Below, in pieces: positions 6,894-56,771 of a stretch of DNA of 64,000 bases (within the stretch, counting starts at the first letter, position 1; every line of letters starts with the position of its first letter). Below the pieces are notes generated by a model. That model ran no database searches. It was not told the origin of the DNA and worked only from the letters and a program-made list of their open reading frames with translations. Location: assembly GCA_028693955.1 (NCBI GenBank), contig JAQUUH010000002.1, positions 9,264-73,263 of the forward strand, in the 5' to 3' direction. The position numbers and the translations under genes are program-made. The DNA is from Bacilli bacterium. Its GTDB lineage: Bacteria > Bacillota_I > Bacilli_A > RFN20 > UBA1709.

Positions 6894-7619
6894 ATGATAT
6901 TAATTAGCAATGCAACAAAGAGTTATGGATCTGATTTTAAGGCCGTTGACAATTTGTCGTTGGAAATTAGAGATGGTGAAATTTTTGGGTTTATTGGTCC
7001 TAATGGGGCTGGTAAAACAACTACTATAAAAATGATGACCGGAATTACTGGATTTGATACAGGAAACATAACGATCAATAATATTGATATAACAAAAGAA
7101 CCAATTGAAGCAAAAAAACAATTTGGATTTGTTCCTGATAGTCCCGATATGTTTTTAAGACTTAAAGGCGTTGAATACTTAAATTTTATGGCTGATATTT
7201 ACGATGTACCTAAAGACCTAAGAGATACAAGAATTATTGATTTAGCAGAAAAATTTGGTATGAGTGATGCCCTTACAGACACAATACAAAGTTATTCTCA
7301 TGGAATGAGACAAAAAATAGTATTAATGGGTGCTTTAGTTCATGAACCAAAAGTATGGATTCTTGATGAGCCAATGACTGGATTAGATCCAAAGTCTTCT
7401 TTTTTGTTAAAAGAAATGATGAGAGAACACTCAAGAAAAGGAAATGCAGTTTTCTTTTCCACTCACGTCTTAGAAGTTGCCGAAAAACTATGTGATAGAA
7501 TAGGAATAATTAATAAAGGAAAACTAATTTTTAATGGAACAATGGAAGAATTGCGCAATAAATTTGAACCTGGCGATTCACTAGAAAAAATATTTTTGGA
7601 GATGACAAAAGGTGAGTAA
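6894..7619 (+). CDS. ABC transporter ATP-binding protein (ABC-2 exporter type)
   Basis: Walker A GPNGAGKTTT, Q-loop, ABC signature-like SHGMRQK, Walker B ILDEP and an H-loop FSTH. Confidence 0.85.
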   Translation: MILISNATKSYGSDFKAVDNLSLEIRDGEIFGFIGPNGAGKTTTIKMMTGITGFDTGNITINNIDITKEPIEAKKQFGFVPDSPDMFLRLKGVEYLNFMADIYDVPKDLRDTRIIDLAEKFGMSDALTDTIQSYSHGMRQKIVLMGALVHEPKVWILDEPMTGLDPKSSFLLKEMMREHSRKGNAVFFSTHVLEVAEKLCDRIGIINKGKLIFNGTMEELRNKFEPGDSLEKIFLEMTKGE

Positions 7620-9345
7620 AACTTTACATCTTGCCAAAATACTTCTAAAATCAGCATCAAATTTTTCTGCAAATTCCTCTCCTTTATCATTAAATAAAAA
7701 TCGCAAAGCATTAAATGGTAAAAGTAAATTTTTACTTTATGCAGTAATGATTGTTTTGATTGTTTCTTCTGTGTGCGTTCCTTTAGGAATAGCTATGAAA
7801 GAAATGACAACTGCTTTATTGCCACTAGGTATTGCTGATGGCCTATTTTATATAATTTTACCAATAGCAACTATAGCTTTATTAGTAATTTCAATATTTA
7901 CAGTAATAAGTGTCTTATTTTTGTCTACCGACAATGCTGTTTTGCTATCCATGCCCTTAAAACCTAGAGAGATTATTGTCGCTAGATTTTTGAATATTAT
8001 ACTTTATACTTATTTAATTATTGCAATGTTTATAATCCCTGCATTTATTGGCTATGGTATAGCAACGGGCGCTGGGATACTCTTTTATATTATTTCTTTA
8101 ATAGAAATATTATTATTGCCTGTTATTCCCCTTTCTGTTTTGCTTTTGATTTTAGTTTTAATATTACAATATTCAAACTTAACAAAACACAGAGATCTTT
8201 TTACCTATATTTCAATGGGATTGACTCTTGTTATTGCTCTTGGTTTTAACTTCATATTTCAAAAAGCTTTTATGAGTGTAGAAATTGATCCTTCTCAACT
8301 TGCGGAAAATATAAGGGCAATTGTTGATGGTTACGCTGGGGTATTGGTAAAGTTTTTACCACAATTAATACCAGCTATTAATGCTCTTACATCTTCTAGT
8401 GTTTGGTTACAATTACTTAATATTTTAATATATATTGTAGCTTCCATTGCTGTTTTTGTAATTGTAATATTTATTGCAAGTCCAATTTACTTTAAATCTA
8501 TTAAAGGCTCTGATGAAAAGGGAGCAAAAAGAAAGAAAAAGAAAAGCAACGAAACTGTACTACAAAAATCCAAAACAAAAGGACTTTTCAAAAGTTCTGT
8601 TATTGTTGAATGGAAACTCATGGTAAGAAGTCCTATTTATTTTTTAAATTTAATATTTGTAATAATTCTTGTCCCATTAATAATGATAGTATCTATGGTC
8701 TTTAGTCTTGGCGCTGCAGGAGAAAGTATTAACATGAATCAAATTATGGAAGTACTATCCTCATTAGGATTAACACTTAGTTCTCCATTAGGATTCTTGG
8801 TGTTTTTTGGAATTTTGTTATTTTTAACAAGTGTTAATTTAATATCTTCAACTGCAGCATCTAGAATGGGAAAATCAGCCTCATTTGTAAAATATATACC
8901 TTGCAACACATTAACAACTGTAAACATTAAGACTTTTTGGGGAAATGTTTTGGGTATTGGCCCTGCCTTATTAATTGCTATAGCTCTTGGTGCTTTTAAA
9001 ATTATAAGTGTTTTAGACATGGTTGCTTTAATACTTCCAATAGTGCCTTCATTTTTGGTTTTAAACTATTTAGGATTTATCATTGATGCAAAAAATCCAA
9101 AACTAAACTGGGTGAATGAAACGCAAGCCGTTAAGTCAAACTTAAACTCCATGTTCTATCTATTTGGTGTCTGGGGTATAGTTGGAATACTAGTTGCTCT
9201 TGGGTTCTTACTTAATAAAGCCAATATTCCTTATTCTGGATACATTTTATCGTTATTTATCACATTATTAGGAATAGTTGCTATAATAATTATCACAAAA
9301 TATTTTAAAAAGAATGATGATACATTCTTTAATAAATTATCATAG
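7612..9345 (+). CDS. ABC transporter permease, ~12 TM, two 6-TM halves joined by a lysine-rich cytoplasmic loop
   Basis: GTG start overlapping the ATPase stop (translational coupling). Hydrophobic throughout with a central KGAKRKKKKSNETVLQKSKTKG loop. No recognisable substrate-binding or FtsX-type extracytoplasmic domain. Confidence 0.6.
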   Translation: MSKTLHLAKILLKSASNFSANSSPLSLNKNRKALNGKSKFLLYAVMIVLIVSSVCVPLGIAMKEMTTALLPLGIADGLFYIILPIATIALLVISIFTVISVLFLSTDNAVLLSMPLKPREIIVARFLNIILYTYLIIAMFIIPAFIGYGIATGAGILFYIISLIEILLLPVIPLSVLLLILVLILQYSNLTKHRDLFTYISMGLTLVIALGFNFIFQKAFMSVEIDPSQLAENIRAIVDGYAGVLVKFLPQLIPAINALTSSSVWLQLLNILIYIVASIAVFVIVIFIASPIYFKSIKGSDEKGAKRKKKKSNETVLQKSKTKGLFKSSVIVEWKLMVRSPIYFLNLIFVIILVPLIMIVSMVFSLGAAGESINMNQIMEVLSSLGLTLSSPLGFLVFFGILLFLTSVNLISSTAASRMGKSASFVKYIPCNTLTTVNIKTFWGNVLGIGPALLIAIALGAFKIISVLDMVALILPIVPSFLVLNYLGFIIDAKNPKLNWVNETQAVKSNLNSMFYLFGVWGIVGILVALGFLLNKANIPYSGYILSLFITLLGIVAIIIITKYFKKNDDTFFNKLS

Positions 9346-9353
9346 GAGAATAA

Positions 9354-10799
9354 ATGAATAAGAATTACGAAAAATACTTTATTAAACCATCTATTAAAAA
9401 TGCCGCCAAAAGAACTAAAAAGAGAGTTGAAATCATTAGGAAAGATGTAGTTATTCCCGATCGACTCAAACAAATTGCTATTAATAAAACATATTGTGTT
9501 AGAACTTTTGGTTGTCAAGCAAATGAAAGAGATGGAGAAATTATATCGGGTATACTAGAAGAAATAGGATACAAGTTTGAATCTAATCCTGAAAAAGCGG
9601 ATTTAGTTATTTTAAACACATGTGCTGTAAGAGAAAATGCTGAAGAAAAAGTCTTTGGAACAATGGGAGGACTTAAAAAAATAAAAAATGATAATCCGGA
9701 TTTCATTTTTGGAATTTGTGGATGCATGGTCCAACAAGATGATATTGTTGAAAAAATATTAAAAAAATATCCTCAAGTTGACCTCATTTTTGGTACTCAT
9801 AATATTAATAATATACCAGCCTTAATTGATAATGCCTATTTTGATAAAGCAAGGGTTGTTGAAGTATATTCTAAAGAGGGGGAAGTCTATGAAAATCTTC
9901 CTTCTAAAAGAGAAAACAATCTTAAAGCTTGGGTAAATATTATGTATGGTTGTGATAAATTTTGCACCTATTGCATTGTCCCTTATACAAGAGGCAAAGA
10001 ACGCAGCCGATTGATGGAAGATATACTCCAAGAAGTTAATGATTTAAAAAAATCAGGATATAAGGAAATAACCTTACTAGGACAAAATGTTAACGCTTAT
10101 GGTAACGACTTGAATCTAGGATATAATTTTGCTGATTTGCTAAATGAAGTTGCCAAAACTAATATTGATAGAATACGCTTTACAACATCTCATCCTTGGA
10201 ACTTTACCAAAGAAATGATTAATGCTATTGCCAACAATAAAAACATCATGCCCTATGTCCATCTCCCATTACAAAGTGGAGATGATGATATATTAAGAAA
10301 AATGGCAAGAAGATATACAATAAAAGAATATGTGGATTTATACAAAGAAATTAGAAATAAGATTGAAGGAGTATGTATTACTACTGATATAATTGTTGGA
10401 TTTCCAGGAGAAACCCTAGAGCAATTTGAAAATACTCTAAAAATTGTTGATGAGCTAAAGTATGATGGTGCCTTTACTTTTATATATTCTCCAAGATCAG
10501 GGACACCTGCTGCAAAAATGAAAGACGATGTCTCTAACAAAGAAAAACACGAACGCTTTAATAGATTACTTGATATAGTAAACAAACATGCTTTAGATAG
10601 AAATAAAGAATATGAGGGGAAAATACTAAAAGTGTTAGTTGAAGGCCCTTCAAAAAGAAATCCTAATATTTTTTCTGGATACAGCGAAAATAATAAACTT
10701 GTAAATTTTGTAGGTAATCCTAATATGATTTCTAAAATAGTAAAAGTAAAAATTAAAAAAGCAAAATCTTTCACATTAGAAGGTGAAGCAATTGGATAA
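9354..10799 (+). CDS. miaB: tRNA-2-methylthio-N6-dimethylallyladenosine synthase (radical-SAM methylthiotransferase)
   Basis: MTTase N-domain RTFGCQANERD...LNTCAVRENAE...GICGCM, a radical SAM CDKFCTYCIVP and a C-terminal TRAM domain. The N-terminal extension (KYFIKPSIKNAAKR) matches B. subtilis YmcB/MiaB rather than RimO/MtaB. Confidence 0.9.
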   Translation: MNKNYEKYFIKPSIKNAAKRTKKRVEIIRKDVVIPDRLKQIAINKTYCVRTFGCQANERDGEIISGILEEIGYKFESNPEKADLVILNTCAVRENAEEKVFGTMGGLKKIKNDNPDFIFGICGCMVQQDDIVEKILKKYPQVDLIFGTHNINNIPALIDNAYFDKARVVEVYSKEGEVYENLPSKRENNLKAWVNIMYGCDKFCTYCIVPYTRGKERSRLMEDILQEVNDLKKSGYKEITLLGQNVNAYGNDLNLGYNFADLLNEVAKTNIDRIRFTTSHPWNFTKEMINAIANNKNIMPYVHLPLQSGDDDILRKMARRYTIKEYVDLYKEIRNKIEGVCITTDIIVGFPGETLEQFENTLKIVDELKYDGAFTFIYSPRSGTPAAKMKDDVSNKEKHERFNRLLDIVNKHALDRNKEYEGKILKVLVEGPSKRNPNIFSGYSENNKLVNFVGNPNMISKIVKVKIKKAKSFTLEGEAIG

Positions 10800-11118
10800 A
10801 AAAACAAAATTGATAATAGAGGAATTACGAAACTTAATTTCACATTACCCTTTAGTAAAAGAATTTAATATTCTTTCTAAAGACATTAAAAAAAATGATG
10901 AGTTAGAAAAATATGAAGAAAAACTCAAAAATTATCAAATGGAAATGGTACACTCATTAAACAACAATGATGATGATAAATATAACTCTATATTAAAAAA
11001 ATATGAATGTTTAAAAAATGATTATTACAACAATCCATTGCATATGAATTATTTGTCTTTAAAAGAAGAAATAAATTCTTTTATCCAAGAAATTGTTGAA
11101 ATATTAAATAATCCATAA
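10783..11118 (+). CDS. ricA: YlbF/YmcA-family protein (RicA-like regulator)
   Basis: An all-helical 111-aa protein with the YmcA-like pattern (..I..Y......F......+..ND.L..YEEKL.NYQ ... NPLHMNYLSLKEEINSFIQEIVEIL versus B. subtilis IPVIQEFRDSQMEVNDLLQLV). It sits immediately after miaB, exactly as ymcB-ymcA in Bacillus. The call rests on weak similarity plus synteny. Confidence 0.45.
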   Translation: MKQLDKKTKLIIEELRNLISHYPLVKEFNILSKDIKKNDELEKYEEKLKNYQMEMVHSLNNNDDDKYNSILKKYECLKNDYYNNPLHMNYLSLKEEINSFIQEIVEILNNP

Positions 11119-11148
11119 AAGAATGATTTATTTCATTCTTTTTTTTCA
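11117..11148 (+). terminator. Rho-independent terminator after the ricA-like gene
   Basis: Hairpin AAGAATGA-TTTAT-TCATTCTT followed by TTTTTTTC. Confidence 0.5.
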
Positions 11149-11277
11149 TTAAATCTTTTAAAAAGTGTATAATTTAGTAAATTGCAACCAATAGTTGTCA
11201 ATTTTCAAACTACAATAGATAGTGCAACCAAGTATTTTAATGATAATATTTGATTGCAAAACAAGGAGGTGTAATCT

Positions 11278-12003
11278 ATGAACATTGAAATTGCAAATAG
11301 ATTATTAGAACTTAGAAAAAAAGCTGGTCTTAGCCAAGAAGAGCTTGCTAACAAATTAGGAATTAGCAGACAATCTGTATCCAAATGGGAGCGCGCAGAA
11401 TCATCGCCTGACACAGATAATTTAATATGCCTAGCAAAGATTTACAATGTATCTTTAGATGAAATATTAAATACCGATGAAACAATCGAAGAAATAGCCA
11501 AAAGTGCTAAAAAAAGAGCTGATGAAAAAATACAAATTATAAAAGGGGATAAATGCATGATTATAAATGGGAAAGGAACGACATATGTCCCAAGATTTAG
11601 TCAAAGACAAAAAAGAAAAGTTTCTAAAATGCATAAATTCCCATACCCAATTTTTGTAATTATAATCTACCTAATTCTTGGTAGTTTATTTAACTGGTGG
11701 CACCCTGGTTGGTTATTGTTTTTAACAATCCCTTTATACTACACACTAGTTGAAGCAATTGCAAAAAAATCAGCATTAATATTTGCTTATCCAGTTCTTG
11801 TGACAATTGTATTTTTCATCCTTGGATTTTATTATAATTGGTGGCATCCTGGCTGGGTAATATTTGCAACTATACCATTATATTATTCATTAATTTCTTT
11901 TGGAAAAGATAGAAATAGTAAAAAACATCAAGAAGTTAATGATATTGATGACGATGATGATGAAGAGGATGATATTGACGATGAAAAAGATAATATGGAG
12001 TAG
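11278..12003 (+). CDS. Membrane-anchored XRE-family HTH transcriptional regulator with a duplicated 2-TM module and an acidic C-terminal tail
   Basis: N-terminal Cro/C1 HTH (LRKKAGLSQEELANKLGISRQSVSKWERAESSPDTDNLICLAKIYNVSLDEIL). Two tandem copies of [TM]-(F/Y)NWWHPGW-[TM]-IPLYY follow, then a tail DIDDDDDEEDDIDDEKDNME. The RBS AAGGAGGTG lies 7 nt upstream. Confidence 0.7.
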   Translation: MNIEIANRLLELRKKAGLSQEELANKLGISRQSVSKWERAESSPDTDNLICLAKIYNVSLDEILNTDETIEEIAKSAKKRADEKIQIIKGDKCMIINGKGTTYVPRFSQRQKRKVSKMHKFPYPIFVIIIYLILGSLFNWWHPGWLLFLTIPLYYTLVEAIAKKSALIFAYPVLVTIVFFILGFYYNWWHPGWVIFATIPLYYSLISFGKDRNSKKHQEVNDIDDDDDEEDDIDDEKDNME

Positions 12004-12961
12004 TATCTTACTATTAGCAGCAATTGGAGTTGCAATATGGTCATCATTTGATTTTAAAGGGTTCCCAACAATTACGGAGGAAGGTAATACTATGAATAAA
12101 ATAATCAATGAGGAAGTTAATAAAATATACTTAGAAATAGATAATAGAGCAATAGAAATAACTGCTAGCGAAGATGAAAATTATTATCTAGACTATACAG
12201 AATCCAAATTTTTAAACACAACTTATAGTTTTAAAGACGGAGAGTTATCTCTTATGCAAAAACAAAAAAAGGTTTTATCATTTTTTAACTGGGGATTTCA
12301 AAATCATGATAAAGTTATATTGAAAATTCCAGCAAGCTTTAATGGAAAACTTATTGGTATAGCAAGCAATGCTTCAATTAATACATCATTAGAAAATACA
12401 ATGGAAAAAATTGAGTTAAAAACTTCTAATGCTAAAATAAATGCTAAAGATTTTATAGCAACTAATTGCTTTTTCCAAAGCAGCAATGGAGATGTAACTA
12501 TTCATAACACTTCTTGTTTAGAGGGGGTATTACATGTTGAAACAAGCAATAGCGATGTAACTGTTTCAGATACAAACTGTCCCGAACTTGTAGCAGAATC
12601 TTCAAATGGAAATATAATTATAAGTCATGTTAAAGCAAATGAAATAACTGCTGAGACTTCTAACTCAAGTATAGAATATTACTATAATACTGCAAATAAG
12701 ATTATTGCTGAAACTTCTAATGGTAGAATTAATGGTAGTAGTAATGAAATTGACATTATGCAACTAACAACAAGCAATTCTAGAGTTGAAGTATCAATAT
12801 TGGGTGAAATTGAAGATTATAAACTTTATGCCAAGACTTCTAATGGTTCTATTGAAATTGGAAATTCACGTTTTGGAGATGAAGTAATAATTGAAAATGA
12901 TGCAACAAAAATTGTAGATATAGAAACAAGTAATGGATCTGTAGTAATTGATTTTAATTAA
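11981..12961 (+). CDS. DUF4097-family beta-repeat protein (LiaG/YvlB-like putative adhesin domain) with an N-terminal TM anchor
   Basis: N-terminal TM helix IIWSSILLLAAIGVAIWSS. At least 6 repeats of the ~20-aa beta-strand unit (A/V)ETSN(G/S)x(I/V)... follow (VETSNSDVTV, AESSNGNIII, AETSNSSIEY, AETSNGRING, TTSNSRVEVS, AKTSNGSIEI, IETSNGSVVI). The start could be any Met between 11900 and 11981. It overlaps the 3' end of the XRE gene in another frame. Confidence 0.65.
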   Translation: MKKIIWSSILLLAAIGVAIWSSFDFKGFPTITEEGNTMNKIINEEVNKIYLEIDNRAIEITASEDENYYLDYTESKFLNTTYSFKDGELSLMQKQKKVLSFFNWGFQNHDKVILKIPASFNGKLIGIASNASINTSLENTMEKIELKTSNAKINAKDFIATNCFFQSSNGDVTIHNTSCLEGVLHVETSNSDVTVSDTNCPELVAESSNGNIIISHVKANEITAETSNSSIEYYYNTANKIIAETSNGRINGSSNEIDIMQLTTSNSRVEVSILGEIEDYKLYAKTSNGSIEIGNSRFGDEVIIENDATKIVDIETSNGSVVIDFN

Positions 12962-12999
12962 CAATTCAATTTCATAAATCTTAAAAATAATAATTTAAT

Positions 13000-13032
13000 A
13001 AAAAAACCAAGACTTAATTGTCTTGGTTTTTA
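13000..13032. terminator. Bidirectional rho-independent terminator at the convergence of the DUF4097 gene (+) and mfd (-)
   Basis: A-run, then CCAAGAC-TTAATT-GTCTTGG, then a T-run. The mfd stop codon lies inside the loop. Confidence 0.5.
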
Positions 13033-16000
13033 ACATAAGATTTAATTTTTTCTAATATAATTATTAAATTATTTAACCACATTTTGTCTTTTTTATATAA
13101 CTTCATTTTTATTTTTTTATTTCTAAATGTTAAATTTATATTTCTAGATATTTCTTGAGTAATTTTGAAAAGAAAAATACCAACACCATTTATATCCATA
13201 ACTTTTGAACTGAATGTTATCTCATAATATTCTTTACTATCTTGACTACTCTCAACAATATCATTAGATTTAAGAATTTCTAACCTTCGCTTTTCTAATA
13301 ACAATTTTACATTAGTCGGAAGTTTACCATATATATCCGTCATTTCATCTTCTAAATCTTTTAATTCTTTTAAATTCTTTGCTTCATCAATTTTTTGATA
13401 AAGATTTATCTTATCCATATCATCATTAGTAAATTCTTTATTTATATAAGCATCAATGGCAATTGGATTATTAATTTCGGGTTCTGGTGTTTTGATTCCT
13501 GTTTTTCTTTCTTCAATTGCTTCGTGTAAAAGTCTGATATACATATCAATACCCACCATGTCTATAAAACCAGATTGTTCTGCTCCCAAAATATCTCCGG
13601 CTCCTCTTATAGATAAGTCTCTCATGGCTATTCTATATCCACTACCAAGTTCTGCAAACTCTTTTATTGCCCTTAGCCTTTTTGTAGCTATTTCACTTAA
13701 TTGTTTTTGTGGCCTATAAAGCAAGTATGCATATGCTAATCTATCTCCTCTACCAACTCTTCCTTTTATTTGATAAAGCTGACTAAGTCCAAAATGATCT
13801 GCATCTTCAATTATTATTGTATTAGCATTTGGAATATCTATACCATTTTCAATTATTGTTGTACAAACCATTACATTTGCTTCTTTATTATTAAATCTAT
13901 ACATTGCTTCTTCAGTATCTTCCTTACTCATTCTTCCATGAATTACTATGACTTTTGCTCCTCTAATTCTACTTTCTATGTCTTTTGCCACTGAATATAT
14001 ATTAGAAATTTTGTTATACAAATAAAATACTTGTCCTTCTCTTGCAAGTTCTCTTTCAATTATTTCCTTTATTAATTTACTGTTTTTTTCAATTACATAT
14101 GTTTGAATTGGCATTCTTTGCAAAGGAGGTGTATCAATCTGGGATAAACTTCTTACTCCAATAAGAGCCATTTGAAGTGTCCTTGGAATTGGAGTTGCAG
14201 ATAAAGTTAATACATCCACTGATTTCTTCAATTCTTTTATTTTTTCCTTATGCTCAACTCCAAATCTTTGTTCTTCATCAACAATAAGCAATCCCAAATC
14301 TTTAAATTTAATGTCATTAGACAAAAGTCGGTGAGTTCCCACAACAAAATGCATTGAGCCATTTTCCAACTCTCTTAAATATTTATTTTGTTCTCTTAAA
14401 CTTATGAAGCGATTTAATATTCCAACATTTATTGGAAAATTTTGAAATCTTTGTTTAGCATTTTCATAATGTTGATAAGACAACAATGTAGTAGGGCATA
14501 ATAACGCAACTTGTTTCCCACTCATTATTGCTTTAAAAGAGGCTATAAATGCTACTTCTGTTTTACCAAAGCCCACATCACCACATAGTAATCTATCCAT
14601 TGGATAAGGACTTTCCATATCTTTTTTTATTTCCACCACAGAGCGCTTTTGATCTGGGGTAAGTTCAAATGGAAAAGAATTTTCAAATTCTTTTTGCCAT
14701 TCATCGTCTTTCCCAAATGCAAACCCAGTATTATTAACTCTTTCAGAATATAAATTCATTAATCTATCGGCAATATCAGCAATTCTACCTTTTATTCTGC
14801 TTTTTGTTTTTTGCCATTCTTCGCCACCCAATTTATTCAATTTAGGTTCTATTCCCTCTTTAGAAACAAATTTACGAATTAATCTAAATTGCTCTAATGG
14901 AACATAAAGAACATCATTGCCTTTATATCCTATATGCAAGTAGTCTCTATGTATACCATCCATTTCTATTGTTTCTATTCCCAAAAATTTGCCTATACCA
15001 TGAGTTTCATGAATGACATAATCACCAATTTTTAAATTCTCATAAGATTGTAAAGGTATCCCTTGTTTATAACGAGAAATACTCCTATAACTTACTCCAC
15101 CATTGCCAAAAAGTTCTCTAGCACTTATATAAACTAATGAATCTTCTTTAATATAAAACCCTTCTTTTAAAACAAATTCAGTATAATTTAATTTATTTTT
15201 AGGCAATACATTATAATCTATATATTTTAAATCAAGTCCCCATTCTTTTACCCATGATTTTATGTAATCTATTTGATTTTTATTTTCTAAACATAAAACA
15301 ACTTTATTGTTTTTTAAATAATTCTCAATAATTTGTCTTGCTACTATTGAATTACCATTAGAACTTTCAACGCTTGTTATTCCACTATATATATCACTAT
15401 CTTTTTTCTTGAATTCATTCAAATATGTTTTTGAATTTAATAAATTTAAAATTTCACTTAACTCATGGTGTAACTTTAAATTAATATTATTTTCTTCTTC
15501 TAAATATTCAAAAGTCTCCTTAAGCAAAATATTATAATTTTCTTTTATATAATCATAATTGGATACTATTAATATTGCATCTTTGGAAAAATAATTTATT
15601 AATGATTCTGGATTGTTTTGTAATAATTTATAATACTTATATAACAAAGAATAGTTTCTTGTATCTAATAATTCTTTTAAATCCTCTTTTTGGATTTCTA
15701 AAATATCTGGATTATTTATCAAACCATTTATTTTATTAAATAAAGTTGATTCTGATGCAATTAAATCTGTTGCAGGAATTATTTTTACTTCTTTTGTAAT
15801 TTCTATTGTTTTTTGAGTATCTAAGTCAAAAAATCTCAAACTATCAACATTATTTCCAAAAAACTCTATCCTTATTGGATTATCATAATTAAGACTAAAA
15901 ATATCTAGAACTCCTCCTCTTTGAGCATATTGTAAAGAGTGTTCAATCATATTAACTTTTTCATACCCACAATTTGAAAGAAAATTACATAGTTGATTAA

Positions 16001-43675: not shown

Positions 43676-43890
43676 TGTGGAAAATTTATAAAAACCCTTA
43701 TCAATATTAAGGTTTTCGTTGTGGAAAATTTATAGTTATCCACATATTTTATCCACATATCAACACCAATCCACACCATTGTGACTTTTCCACACAGTTT
43801 CCACATTTTTTATTTGTGGATAACTCCTGTTTTACCCGCTTTTTCAAAGTATTTTTAAATATTATGTGTGTTGATAAAGTGTGGAAAACA
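43676..43890. promoter_or_regulatory. oriC upstream module (DnaA-box cluster, incA/incB-like) and dnaA promoter region
   Basis: At least 9 DnaA boxes matching TTATCCACA with at most 2 mismatches, in both orientations. Plus orientation: TTATCCACA x2 (43736-44, 43749-57), AATCCACAC, TTTTCCACAC, TTTCCACAT. Minus orientation: TGTGGAAAA x3, TGTGGATAA. Confidence 0.8.
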
Positions 43891-43967
43891 TTTTTTTGAT
43901 GATTTTTGTATTTATTTTACTAATTCCATATGTTAAAATATATGAACAAAGTTGGGAGAGAGTACAT

Positions 43968-45326
43968 ATGGTTCTTAATGCCTCGCGTTTTGAGGATGTT
44001 TGGGATAAGGTATTATCTAGGTTTGAGAGAGAGACCGATGATAAAATTATCTATAACACTTATTTTTTGGGTTCTAAAATTATTGGTATAAATGAGGGCG
44101 TTGTGACAATTGTTGCCCCTTCACGTTTTGCTTGTCAAATGTTAAATAACAGGTTTTTTGATAAGATTGTAAATTATTTGCGTGATATTACGCAAACAAA
44201 TTTTGATTGCCAAATAATTGATCCAGAATCCGCTGAAAATTTTTCTAATTTGCAAATTGATAATAATATGTCGCAAAATGAAAAGGTTTTTGTATCAAAT
44301 TTAAATCAAAGATTTACTTTTGAAAATTTTGTTGTTGGTCACTCCAATAGAGAGTGCTACACTGCTGCTTTATCAACAGCAATGGACCCAGGTAATTTTT
44401 ATAATCCTTTATTCATGTATGGTAAATCTGGTCTTGGAAAAACTCATTTACTACATGCTATTGGAAATTTCATTAAAAATAAAAACAATTTAACAAAAGT
44501 TCTTTATCTTACTGCAGATGATTTTTTCGAAGATTATATAAAAACCGTAAAAAAAGAAGGAACAGAAAACCTAAAAGATAAATATCGCGGAATAGATGTT
44601 TTATTACTCGATGATATTCAATTTTTAAGAGCAAAAAATGCTACGCAAGAAACATTTTTTAACATTTTTAATCTTCTAGTAAACTCTGGAAAACAAATCG
44701 TTATCACTGCAGATAAACCACCTCAAGAACTAGAAAAAATAGAAACTAGATTAGTAGGGAGATTTTCTTCAGGATTAAGTGTTGAAATTCAAGCGCTAGA
44801 ATTTGAAACGGCCTTAGCTATATTAAAAAAGAAAGTAGAAGCCCAAGATATTAATAGAGGACTAATAGATGATGACGTTCTTAAATATATTGCTCAAAAC
44901 TATTCTACAGATGTAAGGCAATTAGAAGGAGCCTTAAATAAATTGTTATTCTATGCTATTACTTATAACAAGAAAGACGAAATTGATATGACAACAGCAC
45001 TAGAAACATTTAAATCCTTTGCAAAAATAAGAGAAAACACAATTAATTTTGAAAAAATAAAAGTTACAGTAGCAGAATACTATAATATTTCTATAAACCA
45101 ACTTACTTCTAAAATAAGACAAACAAACTTAACTGTTCCTAGACACATTGCTATGTATCTTTGTAAAACTATGTTAAATGCTCCTTATAAAAAAATAGGA
45201 GAAGAGTTTGGGGGAAAAGATCATTCAACTGTGATTAGTGCATGTGAAAAAGTTAATAGATTGTTGAAAGAAAACGAAGAATATGTTGTCGTTATAGAAG
45301 AGCTAAAAAAACTAATAAAATCTTAG
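43968..45326 (+). CDS. dnaA: Chromosomal replication initiator DnaA
   Basis: N-terminal domain (W..V...F...........I.....G.VTIVAPSRFA...L..RF), an AAA+ module GKSGLGKTHLLHAIGN, sensor motifs, and a C-terminal DNA-binding domain. The start is at ATG 43968 after GGAGAG; the ORF track's 43881 extension is a hydrophobic read-through artefact. Confidence 0.95.
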   Translation: MVLNASRFEDVWDKVLSRFERETDDKIIYNTYFLGSKIIGINEGVVTIVAPSRFACQMLNNRFFDKIVNYLRDITQTNFDCQIIDPESAENFSNLQIDNNMSQNEKVFVSNLNQRFTFENFVVGHSNRECYTAALSTAMDPGNFYNPLFMYGKSGLGKTHLLHAIGNFIKNKNNLTKVLYLTADDFFEDYIKTVKKEGTENLKDKYRGIDVLLLDDIQFLRAKNATQETFFNIFNLLVNSGKQIVITADKPPQELEKIETRLVGRFSSGLSVEIQALEFETALAILKKKVEAQDINRGLIDDDVLKYIAQNYSTDVRQLEGALNKLLFYAITYNKKDEIDMTTALETFKSFAKIRENTINFEKIKVTVAEYYNISINQLTSKIRQTNLTVPRHIAMYLCKTMLNAPYKKIGEEFGGKDHSTVISACEKVNRLLKENEEYVVVIEELKKLIKS

Positions 45327-45394
45327 ATAAAATGGACTGATTTTTGTTTATTTAATTACTACTATATGATATAATTTAGTTAGGAAAATTGATA

Positions 45395-45445
45395 TTATCC
45401 ACATTATCCACAAAGCTTATTATTATTATTATATTTTTTAAAAAA
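45395..45445. promoter_or_regulatory. oriC downstream module: two tandem perfect DnaA boxes plus an AT-rich DNA unwinding element (incC/DUE-like)
   Basis: TTATCCACA at 45395-45403 and 45404-45412, then AAGCTTATTATTATTATTATATTTTTTAAAAAAG immediately upstream of the dnaN RBS. Confidence 0.7.
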
Positions 45446-45463
45446 GAAAAGAGGTAAATAATT

Positions 45464-46591
45464 ATGAAATTTGTTATTTCGAAATTACACTTAACAGTTG
45501 CCCTTAATAATGTTTCTAGAGCAGTTTCAAGTAGAAATCCTAATCCTGTTTTAACTGGTTTAAAATTTGAATTAAACAAAAATGGATTATTCATAACAGG
45601 AAGTGATTCGGATTTATCTATTGTTACTAAAATACCATTAGAAGAAAATGAAGAAAAAATAATTGATGCTTTTAGTGATGGTATTGTTGTATTGTCATCC
45701 AAATTAATAACTGAAATAATAAGAAAATTAGATTCTCAAAATGAAAGATTAGAATTTGAATTAATTGATAACACAACAGTTAAAATAAAAAATGATAATT
45801 CTGAATATTCATTAACATGTATGAATGCAGATGATTATCCTTCAATAGATTTAACAAATGGATCAAATATATTCTCTGTTTCTACTGAAGAGTTAAAATT
45901 ACTCATTCAACAAACAAGTTTTGCAGCTTCAGATAGAGAAAATAGACCTGTTTTAACAGGTGTAAATTTTAAAGCTACTGGTAATAGGTTAGAATGTGTT
46001 GCTACAGATTCATATAGACTTGCAAGAAAAGTTGTTGAATTACCAACAAACCAAAATTTTAATATAACTATACCAGCAAGGACTCTTAACGAAATTATAA
46101 GAATAATAGAAAACGAGAAAAATGTTGAAATATCTGTTTCAGATAAAAAAGTAATTTTCAAGTTAAAAAATACTTTAATAATTTCTCGTTTAATAAGTGG
46201 TGCTTATCCTGAAACTTCAAAATTAATACCAGATACATTTGAATACGAACTTGAAACAATTTCTCAAAATTTTATTTCAGCAATAGATAGAGCGCAAGTA
46301 TTTTCTGTTGATCGTTTTAATATTGTGAAATTGACTATGAGTCCTGGCCAAGTTCAAATTATTTCAAAAAGTCAGCAAATAGGATCTGCTGTAGAAAATA
46401 TTACCTCATTTAGATATAATGGAGAAAATTTAGAAATATCTTTTACTGCAAAATATGTGATAGAAGCTATTAGAGCAATAGGTACAGAAAATATTAGTAT
46501 TCTTTTTAACGGAGACATGAAACCATTTATCATTAAAAATAAAGATGATAATACCATAACTCAGTTAGTTTTACCTGTTAGAACCTATTAA
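45464..46591 (+). CDS. dnaN: DNA polymerase III beta subunit (sliding clamp)
   Basis: MKF.I.K..L......V.RAVS.RN..P.L.G......N.L..TG.D..LSI; three-domain, 375 aa. The RBS is AAGAGG. Confidence 0.93.
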   Translation: MKFVISKLHLTVALNNVSRAVSSRNPNPVLTGLKFELNKNGLFITGSDSDLSIVTKIPLEENEEKIIDAFSDGIVVLSSKLITEIIRKLDSQNERLEFELIDNTTVKIKNDNSEYSLTCMNADDYPSIDLTNGSNIFSVSTEELKLLIQQTSFAASDRENRPVLTGVNFKATGNRLECVATDSYRLARKVVELPTNQNFNITIPARTLNEIIRIIENEKNVEISVSDKKVIFKLKNTLIISRLISGAYPETSKLIPDTFEYELETISQNFISAIDRAQVFSVDRFNIVKLTMSPGQVQIISKSQQIGSAVENITSFRYNGENLEISFTAKYVIEAIRAIGTENISILFNGDMKPFIIKNKDDNTITQLVLPVRTY

Positions 46592-46780
46592 TTGAGTTCT
46601 AAAAGATTTTTTAAAACCCTTGACCTCTTATTCTAGAGAAGGGTTTTTATTTGATAAAGAGCCAAAAAAAGTTAAATAAGAGCATTTGGAGCAAAATTAA
46701 GCCTCCTAAATGCTTTTATTTTTTGCTTATTTGTGGTAAAATATACATAGAATGCTATAGGCATTTTATGAGGTGATATC

Positions 46781-46988
46781 TTGAAAAAAATCCCAATAAA
46801 AACAGAATACATAAAATTAGGACAATTGTTAAAATATGCAAACGTCATTCAAAGTGGTGGAGAAGAAAAGAATTTCATAAATTCTCATAAAATTTTTGTA
46901 AATAAAATTTTAGAAAATAGGCGCGGCAGAAAAATAGTTCCTGGTGATGTAATACAAATAAATGGAGATATCATCCAAGTAACTAGTT

Positions 46989-46999
<11 letters not shown>
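46781..46999 (+). CDS. yaaA: S4-domain RNA-binding protein YaaA
   Basis: A 72-aa S4-like fold (IKLGQLLKYANVIQSGGE...V.GDVI) in the conserved dnaN-yaaA-recF position. It has a TTG start and a TG-extended -10 (TGTGGTAAAAT) upstream. Confidence 0.7.
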
Positions 47000-50005
<3,006 letters not shown>

Positions 50006-50019
50006 GAAGGAGGGGTAAA

Positions 50020-52503
50020 ATGAGTAACATAATTGATAATGAAAAAGATAATTTTAATTCTGATATAAAAGAAGATAGAATAGAACACATTAATATATCA
50101 AAAGAAGTTAAGTCATCCTTCTTAGATTATGCAATGTCTGTTATTGTAGCAAGGGCACTTCCTGATGTTAGAGATGGATTAAAGCCAGTTCATAGAAGAA
50201 TTATTTATGGAATGAATGAGCAAGGATTTGCCTATAATACACCTCATAAAAAATCAGCAAAAATTGTTGGTGATGTTATGGGAAAATATCATCCACATGG
50301 GGACTCAGCAATCTATGAATCTATGGTTAGACTTGCCCAAGAATTTTCAACAAGATATGTTTTGATTGATGGTCATGGTAATTTTGGATCAATAGATGGA
50401 GATTCAGCAGCTGCAATGCGTTATACTGAGGCTAGAATGTCTAAAATAGCCTCTGAAATGGTAAGAGATATTAATAAAGATACTGTAAATTTTGTTCCTA
50501 ATTATGATGGAGAAGAATTAGAGCCAGAAGTTTTGCCGGCAAGAATTCCTAATTTATTAATCAATGGTTCAACAGGAATTGCGGTAGGTATGGCAACTAA
50601 TATTCCTCCTCATAATCTTGGGGAAGTTATAGATGCAACTCTTGCATTAATTGAAGATAAAGAAATGTCAGTAATTGAATTAATGAATTACATTCAAGGA
50701 CCAGACTTTCCTACAGCAGGAATTATTTTAGGAAAAGCGGGAATCAAAAAAGCTTATGAGACAGGTAATGGCTCAATTGTATTACGTTCAAAATGTGAAA
50801 TACATGAAGCAGAACACGGGAAAAGCAAAATAATAGTTACGGAAATACCATATCAAGTTAATAAATCAGCTATGATTGAAAGAATTGCTGATCTTGTTAA
50901 AAATAAAGTAGTTGAAGGTATTACAGATTTAAGAGATGAATCTTCAAGAGAAGGAATTAGAATTGTAATAGAATTAAAAAAAGAAGCAATTCCAGAGGTA
51001 ATATTAAATAATTTATTTAAATATTCTCAATTACAAACATCATATAGTATAAATATGCTAGCTCTTGTTAATGGAGAACCTAAAATTTTGCCTTTAAAAG
51101 ATGTTTTAAATGCTTTTATAGATCACCAGGTTGAAGTTTTAACAAGAAGAAGTCAATTTGATTTAAATAAAGCAAAAGAAAGAGAACACATTTTACAAGG
51201 TTTGAGTATTGCTAGCCGTAATATTGATGAGATAATTAAAATTATTCGTCAATCAAAAAATAATGAAATTGCCCAAAAAGCTTTGGTAGATAATTTTCAA
51301 TTAAGCGAACGCCAATCAAAAGCAGTTTTGGAAATGCAACTTCAAAGGTTGACAGGAATTCAACAAGAAAAAATAGATTTAGAAATAGTGGATATTGGAA
51401 GTGTAATTGAGAATTTAACAGGAATTCTTGAACAACATGAACGCTTGATGGAAGTAATAAAGAATGATTTAATAGAGATAAAAAATAAATATAAAGATGA
51501 AAGAAGAACAACATTTTCTAATGATTCTTCACAAATAGAAGATGAAGAACTCATACCAGTTGAAGATATAATAATAACTTTAACAACAAATGGTTATATA
51601 AAAAGAGTAAATTTAGACACTTACCGCCTACAAAATAGAGGTGGCAAAGGTATTAAGGGTATGACAACACATAATGATGATGTTGTTGATAAGATGCTTA
51701 TAACTTCTACTCACACAGACATTCTTTTCTTTACAAATTATGGGAAAGTTTATCGGATGAGAGGTTATCAAATACCTGAATATTCTCGACAAGGCAAAGG
51801 ATTACCAATCGTTAATTTGTTAAAAAATGAAAAAGATGAAAAAGTCAGAGCAATAATAAGTGTAGATGAATATGGTAGCGATCGTAATTTAGTGTTTGTA
51901 ACTAAAAATGGTGTTGTCAAAAGAGTTAGTTTGAATCAATTTGAAAATATAAGACAAAGCGGTAAAATTGCTATTACTTTAAGAGAAGGAGATCAATTAT
52001 TTGATGTTAAAAACACCTCCGGAGATGAAGAGATTTTGATAGCATCTTCAAAAGGTAAAGTAGTTAGATTTAATGAAGATGATGTAAGAGTAATGGGAAG
52101 AAATGCTGCTGGTGTTAATGGTATTAACACTGATAAGGGAGAAGTTGTTGGAGTTACTACATCTAAAGAAGGTCAATATATTTTATCAATAACTCAAAAG
52201 GGATTTGGTAAATTGTCAAGTAAAGAGGATTATCGTTTGACAAAAAGAGGCGGTAAAGGCGTAAAAACAATAAATATTACCGAGAAAAATGGTAATCTTG
52301 TTGCGATGAGAGCTGTTAATGGAGATGAGGATTTATTAATAACAACGACAAGAGGTATTGTTATTAGGCTTCCATTAAATCAAGTAAAAGTTTATAGCAG
52401 GAACACTCAAGGAGTTACTATAATACGTCTTGATGATGATCAAGAAGTTGCTTCAATAGCCGTTACAGATCACGAAGAAGAAAATCAAGAAGAAGTTGAA
52501 TAA
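50020..52503 (+). CDS. gyrA: DNA gyrase subunit A
   Basis: The active-site region [10 protein letters not shown], the QRDR (HPHGDSAIY), a C-terminal beta-pinwheel with GyrA-box-like repeats, and an acidic tail. Confidence 0.97.
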
Positions 52504-52512
52504 AAAAATTAA

Positions 52513-52548
52513 AAGGCAAAGTAAAACAAACTTTGTCTTTTTTTTGTT
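52513..52548 (+). terminator. Rho-independent terminator after gyrA
   Basis: GGCAAAGT-AAAACAA-ACTTTGTC followed by TTTTTTTTG. Confidence 0.55.
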
Positions 52549-52584
52549 GATTTTATTTAAAATAAAAGTATATAATTATATAAA

Positions 52585-52812
52585 TCAATGAGCAAGAATA
52601 GTAATCTTTTATTGATATTGTAGAGAGTTGCTGCTTGGTGAAAGGCAATTATTGATATTTGATGAATCCACTTGTAAGAGGGATGGCGAAACTTCCCCGG
52701 TTGAAAACCGTTATCATGGAGAGAACATTGTTTCACGTGAAACAATTGAAATAGGGTGGCACCACGATTAATTCGTCCCTTACTAAGGAGCCTTTTTATT
52801 TATTTTTAGAAG
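52585..52812 (+). promoter_or_regulatory. T-box riboswitch leader (probable Ser specificity) upstream of serS
   Basis: The conserved T-box sequence AATAGGGTGGCACCACG (consensus AAUUAGGGUGGNACCGCG) lies ~45 nt before the RBS. The stem I region has AGAGAG and a GNUGA-like motif. A candidate terminator helix and T-run (AAGGAGCCTTTTTATTTATTTTT) sit just upstream of the serS RBS GGAGG. Confidence 0.6.
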
Positions 52813-52826
52813 ATGGAGGAAATAAT

Positions 52827-54104
52827 ATGTTAGATATTAAGTTAATACGTGAAAACCCCGAAAAAATAATTCAAAGATTGAATACTAGAGGTAAGGATTA
52901 TTCTATTTTTGTAAAAGAAATAGTGAATTTTGATGAGTTAAGAAGAGAGAAATTGCAAAAAGTAGAAGAACTAAAACAATTTAGAAATCAACAATCTAAA
53001 CTTATAGGAATTTATAAGAAAAACAATGAAGATACAACAAAACTTTTTCAAGAGATTGCTGGTATAGGTGAAGAAATTTCAAAATTAGATTTAGAAGTTG
53101 CAAATTATGAAGAAAAAATTCAGAAGAATATGTATGAATTGCCTAACCTTCCTAACGAAAAAGTTTTTATAGGAAAAGATGAAACTCAAAATAAAGAAGT
53201 TCGTCGTTGGGGAAATCCAAGAAAATTTGATTTTGAATTTAAAGCACATTGGGATTTGGGCGTTGATTTAGACATTTTAGATTTTGATAGAGCAGCAAAA
53301 ATCACAGGTGCAAGATTTGTGGTTAATAAGGGATTAGGAGCAAGATTAGAAAGAGCTGTTATGAATTTTATGCTAGATATTCACACTTACGAACATGGTA
53401 TAAAAGAAATAATTCCTCCTTTTATGGTTAATGCTACTTCGATGTATGGTACTGGTCAATTACCAAAGTTTGAAGAGGATTTATTTAAGATTGAAAAAGA
53501 AGGGTTTTATTTGATTCCAACAGCGGAGGTTCCTGTAACTAATTTACATGCTAATGAGATACTTGATATCAAGCAACTTCCAATAAAATACTGTGCTTAT
53601 ACGCCTTGTTTTAGAAGTGAAGCAGGTTCTGCAGGAAGAGATACAAGAGGAATTATAAGATTACATCAATTTAATAAAGTTGAATTAGTAAGATTTGCAA
53701 CACCAGAAACTTCCTACCAAAATTTAGAGGAATTAACTCATGATGCTGAAGAAATATTGCAAAAACTTGAATTGCCATATAGAGTAATTCAATTATGTAC
53801 TGGAGATATGGGATTTGGGTCTGCGATGACTTATGATATTGAAGTATGGTTACCATCTTACAATGCCTATAAAGAAATAAGTTCTTGTTCAAATTATGAA
53901 GACTTTCAAGCAAGAAGAGCTAATATCAAATTTAGAAGGGATCCTAAAGGGAAAGCCGAACTTGTTCACACATTAAATGGTTCGGGACTAGCAATAGGAA
54001 GAACAGTTGCAGCAATTATAGAAAATTATCAAAATGAAGATGGTTCAATTACTATTCCCCAAGCTTTAAGAAAATACTTTAATGGCGAGGAAGTTATAAA
54101 ATAA
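52827..54104 (+). CDS. serS: Serine--tRNA ligase
   Basis: N-terminal coiled-coil arm and a class II core with motif 2 ([21 protein letters not shown]) and motif 3 (GSGLAIGR); 425 aa. Confidence 0.95.
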
Positions 54105-54114
54105 AAATTTGTTT

Positions 54115-54150
54115 TTAAAACTTAGAATATATTCTAAGTTTTATTTTTTC
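54115..54150 (+). terminator. Rho-independent terminator after serS
   Basis: AAAACTTAGAAT-AT-ATTCTAAGTTTT followed by ATTTTTT. Confidence 0.6.
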
Positions 54151-54236
54151 AAATATATCTAGTTAAAAAAGAGGTATATTTTTGTTTTTCGTTACCCAAA
54201 CTTATGGTATAATAAAATAAATTTAGGAGCAAAATA

Positions 54237-56768: not shown

Positions 56769-56771
56769 ATT

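Follow-up and report, generated by a model that had tools for sequence, protein, structure and literature searches.

A WHPGW-hairpin XRE regulator and its overlapping Toastrack gene: a candidate membrane signalling bicistron in a Bacilli bacterium

Two overlapping genes, termed open reading frame (ORF) A and ORF B, were analyzed in a 64,000-nucleotide window from a Bacilli bacterium (GenBank assembly GCA_028693955.1, contig JAQUUH010000002.1); coordinates are those of the window. ORF A encodes an XRE-type regulator with four predicted transmembrane (TM) helices and ORF B a TM-anchored Toastrack (DUF4097) protein. Together they probably form an insulated, autoregulated and translationally coupled bicistron for a one-component-type membrane signalling unit, and, as part of the same joint best reading, they are probably the XRE-fused counterpart of the PadR / HAAS-(WHPGW)-Toastrack systems. 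The XRE-type helix-turn-helix (HTH), tandem TM hairpins, acidic tail and gene overlap described in a first-pass annotation of this DNA were all borne out, and its coordinates hold.

ORF A is named "helix-turn-helix transcriptional regulator" in the public annotation. Its features are as follows.

11263..11269, + strand: Shine-Dalgarno sequence AAGGAGG of ORF A, read from the sequence
11278..12003, + strand: ORF A, transmembrane XRE regulator, 241 amino acids (aa)
11305..11466, + strand: HTH_3 DNA-binding domain (Pfam PF01381), aa 10-63
11638..11766, + strand: WHPGW hairpin 1, aa 121-163, FPYP-TM1-NWWHPGW-TM2-IPLYY
11782..11910, + strand: WHPGW hairpin 2, aa 169-211
11923..12000, + strand: acidic C-terminal tail, aa 216-241, 16 Asp/Glu of 26 residues

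The HTH_3 domain was matched with an E value of 1e-18 and shows the hallmarks of an XRE / Cro-C1 HTH, including the five-helix lambda-repressor-like fold. The two hairpins, identical at 23 of 38 residues, are tandem units that span aa ~120-211 and carry the invariant residues G135, W141, P143, W145, G183, W189, P191, W193 and P200. In an AlphaFold2 model built with 74 homologues, the predicted local distance difference test score exceeded 90 in the HTH as well as in four helices (123-138, 143-163, 171-186 and 191-229), and the linker joining the HTH to the TM part (aa 65-118) was of low confidence. With an HTH_3 domain and four predicted TM helices, ORF A falls within the definition of a transmembrane transcription regulator. 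Its identity as a membrane-tethered XRE regulator is supported by domain match and model, its membrane location being predicted. Short beta-hairpin repeats of the form DG(I/V)HV.D..G..V.(I/V) were seen in the HTH-TM linkers of many family members (e.g. P0013, P0045 and P0067), and a degenerate copy, IQIIKGDKCMIINGKG, lies in the ORF A linker at aa 86-103 (11533-11586).

The TM part was defined as a module of tandem units, each consisting of P-x-P, a TM helix with LG, W-H-P-G-W, and a TM helix with (I/V)P(L/I)YY; ORF A has two such units and a profile score of 160 bits. From the alignments the repeat unit reads YP..v..YL.LGF...WHPGW.IFLTIPLYY and occurs in two to five copies, with the G, W, P, W and P invariant. 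A homology search with aa ~100-222 gave at least 481 significant proteins, many of them HTH_3 fusions of 190-215 aa and others lacking any Pfam domain. When a profile was searched against 1.84 billion cluster representatives, 1,710 clusters (50% identity) were found at E<=1e-3 and 1,062 at E<=1e-10. A Pfam census of the top 139 module representatives found HTH_3 in 75, HAAS in 26, and HAAS together with DUF4097 in one, and a local HAAS profile raised the HAAS fusions to ~30 of 139. The module is therefore met in three contexts, fused to an XRE HTH, fused to HAAS, or alone.

No match of the module to Pfam or NCBIfam rose above threshold. At E<=1, the matches of 26 module sequences, all below threshold, were noise from hydrophobic segments (ACR_tran, lactate permease) and NCBIfam NF047451, "WxxxWxxW domain-containing protein". 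The latter is a 37-position hydrophobic Trp-motif model whose name describes the motif only and no function; it matched 18 of the 26 stand-alone module sequences weakly, at 9-27 bits against a cut-off of 40, and left the module of the window unmatched. The TM-module profile found nothing below E 0.3 among PDB sequences, and the literature gave nothing relevant on WHPGW, WxxxWxxW or XRE plus Toastrack. The first-pass annotation, which did not recognize the NWWHPGW region from any characterized family, was right in this: Pfam, NCBIfam, PDB and literature were all negative. On sequence evidence, the WHPGW hairpin module is a previously undescribed, unannotated domain family. Stand-alone WHPGW proteins, 118-126 aa long and starting with a region that carries the motif PEGSY(Y/F)E (P0088 at locus L100; P0107 and P0111 at L097-L099), are encoded beside a hibernation-factor gene or DUF4342 genes, with no regulator gene adjacent; a role of the module independent of transcription factors therefore follows.

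ORF B, publicly named "DUF4097 family beta strand repeat-containing protein", was delimited as follows.

11981..12961, + strand: ORF B, TM-anchored Toastrack (DUF4097) protein, 326 aa
11990..12046, + strand: N-terminal TM anchor of ORF B, aa 4-22, preceded by MKK (hydrophobic segment 1-25)
12416..12949, + strand: nine xxTSNGxIxI beta-strand repeats, aa 146-323, found as regular-expression matches

The frame is open from a TTG at 11900; the ATG at 11981 (MKKIIWSS...) gives 326 aa, as in the public annotation. ORF B is a member of the Toastrack / DUF4097 family by its score above the Pfam gathering threshold (PF13349, E 3.4e-18, 66.4 bits against 22.9) and by its repeated beta-strand units, whose matches start at aa 146, 165, 186, 205, 224, 243, 262, 284 and 314. 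Homologues numbered 795. The earlier description of a DUF4097 protein with at least six repeats is thus confirmed, the repeats being nine and the TM anchor single.

The junction of the two genes has two features.

11963..11970, + strand: Shine-Dalgarno-like sequence GAAGAGGA for ORF B, inside the acidic-tail codons, read from the sequence
11981..12003, + strand: 23-nucleotide (nt) overlap of ORF A and ORF B, with ORF B in the +1 frame

The overlap is perfectly conserved with the closest relative, a metagenome-assembled genome labelled "Bacilli bacterium" (L001; 92% amino-acid identity, syntenic at 84.4% nucleotide identity), within an identical run of 27 nt (11980-12006). Stretches of GGAGG or AAGGGA analogous to GAAGAGGA precede the starts of the partner genes at other loci. 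This arrangement suggests that ORF A and ORF B are translationally coupled. A programmed frameshift joining the two frames was considered and rejected; the GAT/GAA-rich codons open the +1 frame by composition, and no slippery site was found.

The acidic tail was compared between family members with and without a Toastrack partner. Tails of paired members averaged 33 aa with 9 Asp/Glu, versus 16 aa with 2.3 Asp/Glu in solo members. Poly-Asp stretches are not confined to paired tails; some solo members have them, as do other cytoplasmic linkers in the WHPGW family. Because paired tails are longer and more acidic and because poly-Asp recurs in those other places, the acidity is probably selected. 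The tail as a mere by-product of the overlap was rejected as sole cause, since only the last 7 codons overlap and some solo members are poly-Asp.

A single back-translated pattern turned up family loci in 503 species-representative genomes, and the best 80 of 503 loci were kept; they come mostly from Lachnospiraceae, Oscillospiraceae and Ruminococcus. The promoter features of the window, several of them defined from these loci, are given below.

11157..11271, + strand: non-coding promoter/operator block, a 115-nt perfect match to the closest relative
11184..11198, no strand assigned: predicted operator O1, palindrome GCAACCAATAGTTGT, a 9/10 match to GCAAC-N5-GTTGC, 94 nt upstream of the start codon
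11206..11220, no strand assigned: second conserved block, CAAACTACAATAGAT in the window and TCAAACyAGAATTGGT in the family, from the positional consensus of 76 promoters
11222..11231, + strand: second copy of TGCAACCAA (direct repeat D1), a predicted half-site GCAACC overlapping the putative -35 GTGCAA
11241..11249, + strand: putative extended -10, TGATAATAT, read from the sequence, at the position of the family TATAAT

Enrichment of short words in the 160 nt upstream of family genes showed TGCAACC in 47 of 80, against 0 of 77 controls. The family palindrome GCAAC-N5-GTTGC (consensus GCAACCAATAGTTGC) was matched at 9/10 or better within 250 nt upstream of 75 of the 80 genes, 64 of the matches being perfect. 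In the remaining 841 kilobases (kb) of locus sequence only 3 perfect palindromes occurred, two of them just past the 250-nt limit upstream of a family gene and the third preceding another XRE-family gene. The operator of the WHPGW-XRE subfamily was accordingly set as GCAAC-N5-GTTGC lying 90-220 nt upstream of the start codon, and the window has it. One other 9/10 match was found in the 64 kb, at 58341-58355 inside a mutL-like ORF, and is probably due to chance.

When 76 promoters were aligned on O1 a common layout emerged: O1, ~7 nt, TCAAACyAGAATTGGT, GyGCAACC, 16 nt and TATAAT. The window counterpart of GyGCAACC is GTGCAACC at 11222-11229. The TGCAACCAA repeats, which the first-pass annotation had reported as a separate finding, can therefore be assigned, one to the left half of O1 and the other to the half-site that overlaps the -35. 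The block at 11206-11220 may be a second, perhaps weaker operator, an element of the UP type, or a site bound by a different factor. Block 11157-11271 is the longest identical run in the 4.5 kb of synteny with the closest relative, 100-nt windows scoring 0.96-0.99 there versus 0.73-0.91 elsewhere; its invariance exceeds what the recognizable motifs explain, and an Rfam search of 10700-13200 returned no RNA family that accounts for it. That operator and promoter layout are shared across the family, with or without a partner gene, implies autoregulation: in solo and paired members the XRE domain would bind its own promoter.

The pair is flanked by a ylbF-like gene on its 5' side and by convergent mfd on its 3' side, each with a hairpin in between.

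11117..11149, + strand: terminator-like hairpin AAAAGAATGA / TCATTCTTTT with U-run (inverted repeat I5), ending the upstream ylbF-like gene
13002..13031, no strand assigned: bidirectional terminator hairpin CCAAGAC / GTCTTGG with A-run and U-run flanks, shared with convergent mfd

RNA folding gave -9.5 kcal/mol (z -4.8) for the 5' hairpin (11117-11142 plus U-run) and -16 kcal/mol (z -6.3) for the 3' hairpin. With hairpins on either side, the pair is therefore an insulated bicistron. A consensus promoter and terminator scan was uninformative, listing 18 promoter-like sites where 18.5 were expected and neither the two hairpins nor the extended -10. ORF A and ORF B are the sole genes between the hairpins, the operon holds no ABC transporter or UppP gene, and no kinase or response-regulator gene of a two-component system flanks it.

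For the partner census all ORFs of the 80 loci were scanned with a DUF4097 hidden Markov model. A Toastrack gene was present at 29 loci, in every case as the next gene downstream and in the same orientation; the cultured strain "Lachnospiraceae bacterium 10-1" (L026) has such a pair. If the start codon closest to the TM anchor is taken, most partner genes begin 4-23 nt before the XRE gene ends, behind a Shine-Dalgarno-like sequence. In two pairs the genes are instead 75-86 nt apart. A rough neighbour-joining tree placed the pairs in a large Lachnospiraceae clade and in a small clade of the window, L001 and L002, with solo clades between them. The Toastrack of the window scored 121 and 94 bits against Toastracks from PadR contexts and <66 bits against any Lachnospiraceae XRE partner. 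This greater nearness to the PadR-context proteins suggests, as far as bit scores can tell, that Toastrack was recruited independently in the two paired clades.

The WHPGW module is itself the link to the HAAS-PadR-Toastrack systems, which Ravi et al. (2024, PMC11237479) put forward as an alternative to two-component systems. The three closest non-orthologous relatives of ORF B that were looked up all lie in PadR-(HAAS)-DUF4097 operons. One module protein (P0341), encoded downstream of a PadR gene, carries in a single chain HAAS (9-58), an acidic linker, a WHPGW part of four TM segments, a Lys-rich linker, a fifth TM segment and Toastrack (332-560). Another locus (P0359) has the same architecture as two genes with a 4-nt overlap, and two more (P0244 and P0290) are PadR|HAAS-WHPGW pairs without Toastrack. 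A terminal, TM-anchored Toastrack gene that overlaps the preceding membrane-protein gene is found in the window (23 nt) and at L083, L087 and L095. The module is thereby found with two kinds of transcriptional output, and with either of them Toastrack is optional: fused, encoded by an overlapping gene, or missing. This is the strongest argument that module and Toastrack act physically together. The idea that XRE-TM and DUF4097 genes form a conserved cassette rather than a chance adjacency is upheld by the 29 of 80 loci and by the fused and overlapping forms in PadR-HAAS systems. At four loci (L089, L090, L091 and L095) a gene for a Colicin_V (CvpA-like) membrane protein follows the Toastrack gene of a PadR|HAAS-WHPGW-Toastrack operon.

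The single chain also bears on topology. With HAAS or HTH in the cytoplasm and four TM segments returning the chain to the inside, the fifth TM segment, or the anchor of ORF B, would put Toastrack outside. The five TM segments of P0341 and the positive-inside rule applied to the MKK anchor both point to an extracellular Toastrack in ORF B.

The following course of events is proposed. The cytoplasmic XRE HTH, presumably as a dimer, would bind GCAAC-N5-GTTGC and the half-sites beside it in the promoter of its own gene. Through a flexible linker of ~55 aa the HTH would be joined to the two WHPGW hairpins, predicted to be N-in/C-in with their W-H-P-G-W turns at the outer leaflet, and the hairpins would be anchor and sensing element both. 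ORF B would be made in step with ORF A and sit beside it by its single N-in anchor, its Toastrack beta-helix outside the cell, as an accessory input to or modulator of the WHPGW module rather than a gate that the module requires. The TM module would change its conformation or oligomeric state on a membrane or envelope cue; this would alter operator occupancy by the HTH or its contact with RNA polymerase, and expression of the operon would shift. The analysis itself shows the anatomy of the domains, the spread of the family, the coupling of the genes, the conserved operator and promoter and the fused architectures; DNA binding to O1, the topology, physical contact between the two proteins, the identity of the signal and the direction of regulation are what we infer here. 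Envelope sensing, already suggested by the first-pass annotation, would be attributed to the pair by analogy alone. In the literature the proposal has precedents in BcrR, in the transmembrane transcription regulators as a class, in the HAAS-PadR-Toastrack systems and in the autorepressed lltR operon of Listeria.

Several points weigh against this proposal. In 51 of the 80 family members no Toastrack gene was found within ~6 kb, and their neighbours vary; there are also stand-alone WHPGW proteins that lack a regulator gene in their vicinity. Clearly the module does something by itself, and the family can do without Toastrack. Since those 51 keep the same operator and promoter, Toastrack is at most an accessory input or modulator, and the earlier view of the partner as the gate of the repressor fails in so far as a gate would be obligatory. 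The extracellular loops of ORF A are predicted to be only ~3 residues long. Toastrack is generally intracellular according to Ravi et al. (PMC11237479), which conflicts with the topology favoured above. Part of the acidity at the very end of the tail is forced by the overlap, since the bases read as DEE(Q/K)* in frame A are those read as MK(N/K)NK in frame B. The putative -35 is poor and is compatible with repression and activation alike. Finally, for every member of the family, what is said of function draws on sequence and model data.

ORF A might instead sense and regulate alone in the manner of BcrR, ORF B being a mere regulated output, a surface or envelope-protective Toastrack with no part in the signalling. 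We regard this as rather unlikely, though it is the most serious of the alternatives: most family members lack Toastrack and have the same operator, ORF B is the sole cargo of an autoregulated operon, and the lltR operon of Listeria carries its DUF1700 and DUF4097 genes as regulated cargo (PMC6624303). The single-chain fusion of WHPGW and Toastrack in P0341, however, argues for one physical complex and not for a free effector; a gene that serves as output alone would not usually overlap the regulator gene in a way that suggests coupling, and the known Toastrack proteins LiaF, LiaX and YvlB modulate signalling according to the literature. A release of the HTH from the membrane is improbable. 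Here the WHPGW hairpins would sequester the HTH until signal-triggered proteolysis, in the linker or within the membrane, freed a soluble XRE repressor or activator. The long, low-confidence linker before TM1 (aa ~65-118) would suit such a course, as would the invariant Pro and Gly within the TM helices; Pro and Gly inside TM helices are common among intramembrane-protease substrates. Yet no conserved protease gene was found in the neighbourhood, W-H-P-G-W is strictly invariant over ~1,700 clusters that include proteins without a DNA-binding domain, which suggests a function beyond that of a cleavable tether, and BcrR shows that XRE regulators can work while membrane-bound.

That the pair is a cI-like repressor with cargo, belonging to a mobile element, prophage or anti-phage defence, is very improbable. 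A fold search with the full ORF A model was dominated by the HTH, with the phage and integrative-element repressors ImmR, P22 c2 and 434 among the likenesses, and a PADLOC scan matched ORF A to regulator models through the HTH only; ORF B had no PADLOC match. The pair has miaB/ylbF on one side and mfd on the other and belongs to a core stretch of the chromosome with gyrA/gyrB, recF and mutS/mutL, the locus is syntenic in the closest relative, the family is inherited vertically in clades, and no integrase or phage genes are nearby. Least credible of all is the chance adjacency of two unrelated genes. It could appeal to the 64% of family members that have no partner, but where the partner occurs, at 29 of 80 loci, it invariably follows directly in the same orientation, in most cases with an overlap; the 27 nt spanning the overlap show no difference from the closest relative, and fused and split versions exist in the HAAS branch.

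The gene order around the pair is recA, rny, ymdB, ABC, miaB and ylbF upstream and mfd downstream. An ABC ATPase gene and an ABC_tran_2-type multi-TM gene lie at 6894-9345, two genes upstream, with miaB and the ylbF-like gene intervening, and no evidence connects them to the cassette. ORFs like dnaN, recF, gyrB, gyrA, serS, mutS and mutL at 43881-58520 are core replication and repair genes. The window has a GC content of 28.6% and its ORFs are intact under table 11; it is low-GC chromosome and not a mobile element, and a near-identity DNA search of plasmids gave one irrelevant 196-nt match only.

A wider reading is offered tentatively. WHPGW would be an unrecognized membrane-embedded sensor of Clostridia and related Firmicutes, interchangeably fused to XRE with GCAAC-N5-GTTGC as operator or connected through HAAS to PadR, with an extracytoplasmic Toastrack beta-helix as a co-receptor (fused or encoded by an overlapping gene) and the invariant Trp-His-Pro-Gly-Trp turn at the outer leaflet as a site for a ligand or lipid headgroup, or for pH or metal. 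If this sensor reading is true, the operon of the window is a minimal, fully specified model of kinase-free Toastrack input to gene expression. The cassette looks like a widespread, uncharacterized coupling of membrane or envelope signals to transcription in gut Firmicutes. Toastrack proteins of the DUF4097/LiaF/LiaX type are implicated in responses to daptomycin and cell-envelope stress, and to our knowledge most transmembrane transcription regulators have no known signal, operator or partner. The family offers a testable package of a short regulator, a family-wide operator, a conserved promoter and a few invariant TM residues, with a Toastrack partner that is optional: sister clades differ in whether they have it, and other clades have it fused. 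The shared TM module ties XRE-type regulators to the HAAS-PadR network, and the family is common in gut Lachnospiraceae and Oscillospiraceae, groups in which envelope signalling is poorly studied.

Among known systems, BcrR of Enterococcus faecalis is a one-component bacitracin sensor with an XRE domain, four TM helices and no extracellular domains (PMC3968067, PMC10269533). ORF A resembles it in having an N-terminal XRE-type HTH followed by four TM helices and no sizeable extracellular domain. The two differ in that BcrR activates the neighbouring bcrABD transporter operon, whereas the apparent target of ORF A is the bicistron it belongs to, in which its partner is a Toastrack gene; no target operon of a bcrAB-type ABC transporter or bcrD (UppP) is adjacent, the nearest ABC genes being those at 6894-9345, beyond miaB and ylbF. 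An XRE+TM regulator beside a PAP2 gene on an E. faecium plasmid, whose identity as BcrR is unverified, is 26% identical to aa 1-191 of ORF A, seemingly mainly in the HTH, and has no WHPGW/IPLYY. A plasmid protein search for a BcrR-type relative gave XRE+TM regulators of Enterococcus and Leuconostoc, which were set aside; their TM parts are without the motif and the similarity seems mostly HTH-level. On the E. faecium linear plasmid pELF_USZ an unrelated XRE+TM regulator stands directly upstream of a PAP2-family phosphatase gene (L081, 4007-5368), an order of genes like that of BcrR/BcrD.

With LiaF, LiaG, LiaX and YvlB of Bacillus and Enterococcus, ORF B shares the character of a membrane-associated Toastrack-superfamily protein tied to transcriptional signalling of envelope state. 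The likeness to LiaG drawn in the first-pass annotation goes no further, since ORF B is not a LiaG equivalog (NF049997, 55 bits against a cut-off of 285); nor does it reach LiaX (NF038025, 38.3 bits against 350). The LiaF-like logic proposed there was likewise abandoned, as the pair resembles neither the architecture of LiaF nor its two-component link. LiaF consists of LiaI-LiaF-TM with four TM helices plus DUF2154 and acts on the LiaS kinase, whereas ORF B has one TM segment and DUF4097; LiaF-TM and PspC were absent among the best 25 of the 31 Pfam families matched by the 26 module sequences at E<=1.

A survey of transmembrane transcription regulators, defined by a DNA-binding domain and at least one TM segment, found HTH domains to be commonest and ~57% of the proteins to have no other recognizable domain (PMC10269533). 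It defined no TM-domain families, operators or partners, and the WHPGW family, its operator and its link to Toastrack are additions to it. There is also a likeness to the HAAS-PadR-Toastrack systems. A Listeria operon of this kind, lltR-DUF1700-DUF4097 (lltR-lmo0600-lmo0601), is autorepressed (PMC6624303). The window shares with these systems a transcription-factor-led operon that ends in a TM-anchored DUF4097 gene overlapping its predecessor, and the WHPGW module itself is fused to HAAS in the ~30 representatives counted above, with or without Toastrack. PadR and HAAS were absent among the Pfam matches of ORF A (best 25 of 26 families, E<=0.1) and of three other scanned ORFs including ORF B, so that the pair is not itself such a system, and an XRE-fused version is not described in the main text or one supplementary file of PMC11237479. 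The difference from the HAAS-PadR systems is that here the XRE HTH is fused straight to the TM module, so that one protein replaces PadR and HAAS-TM.

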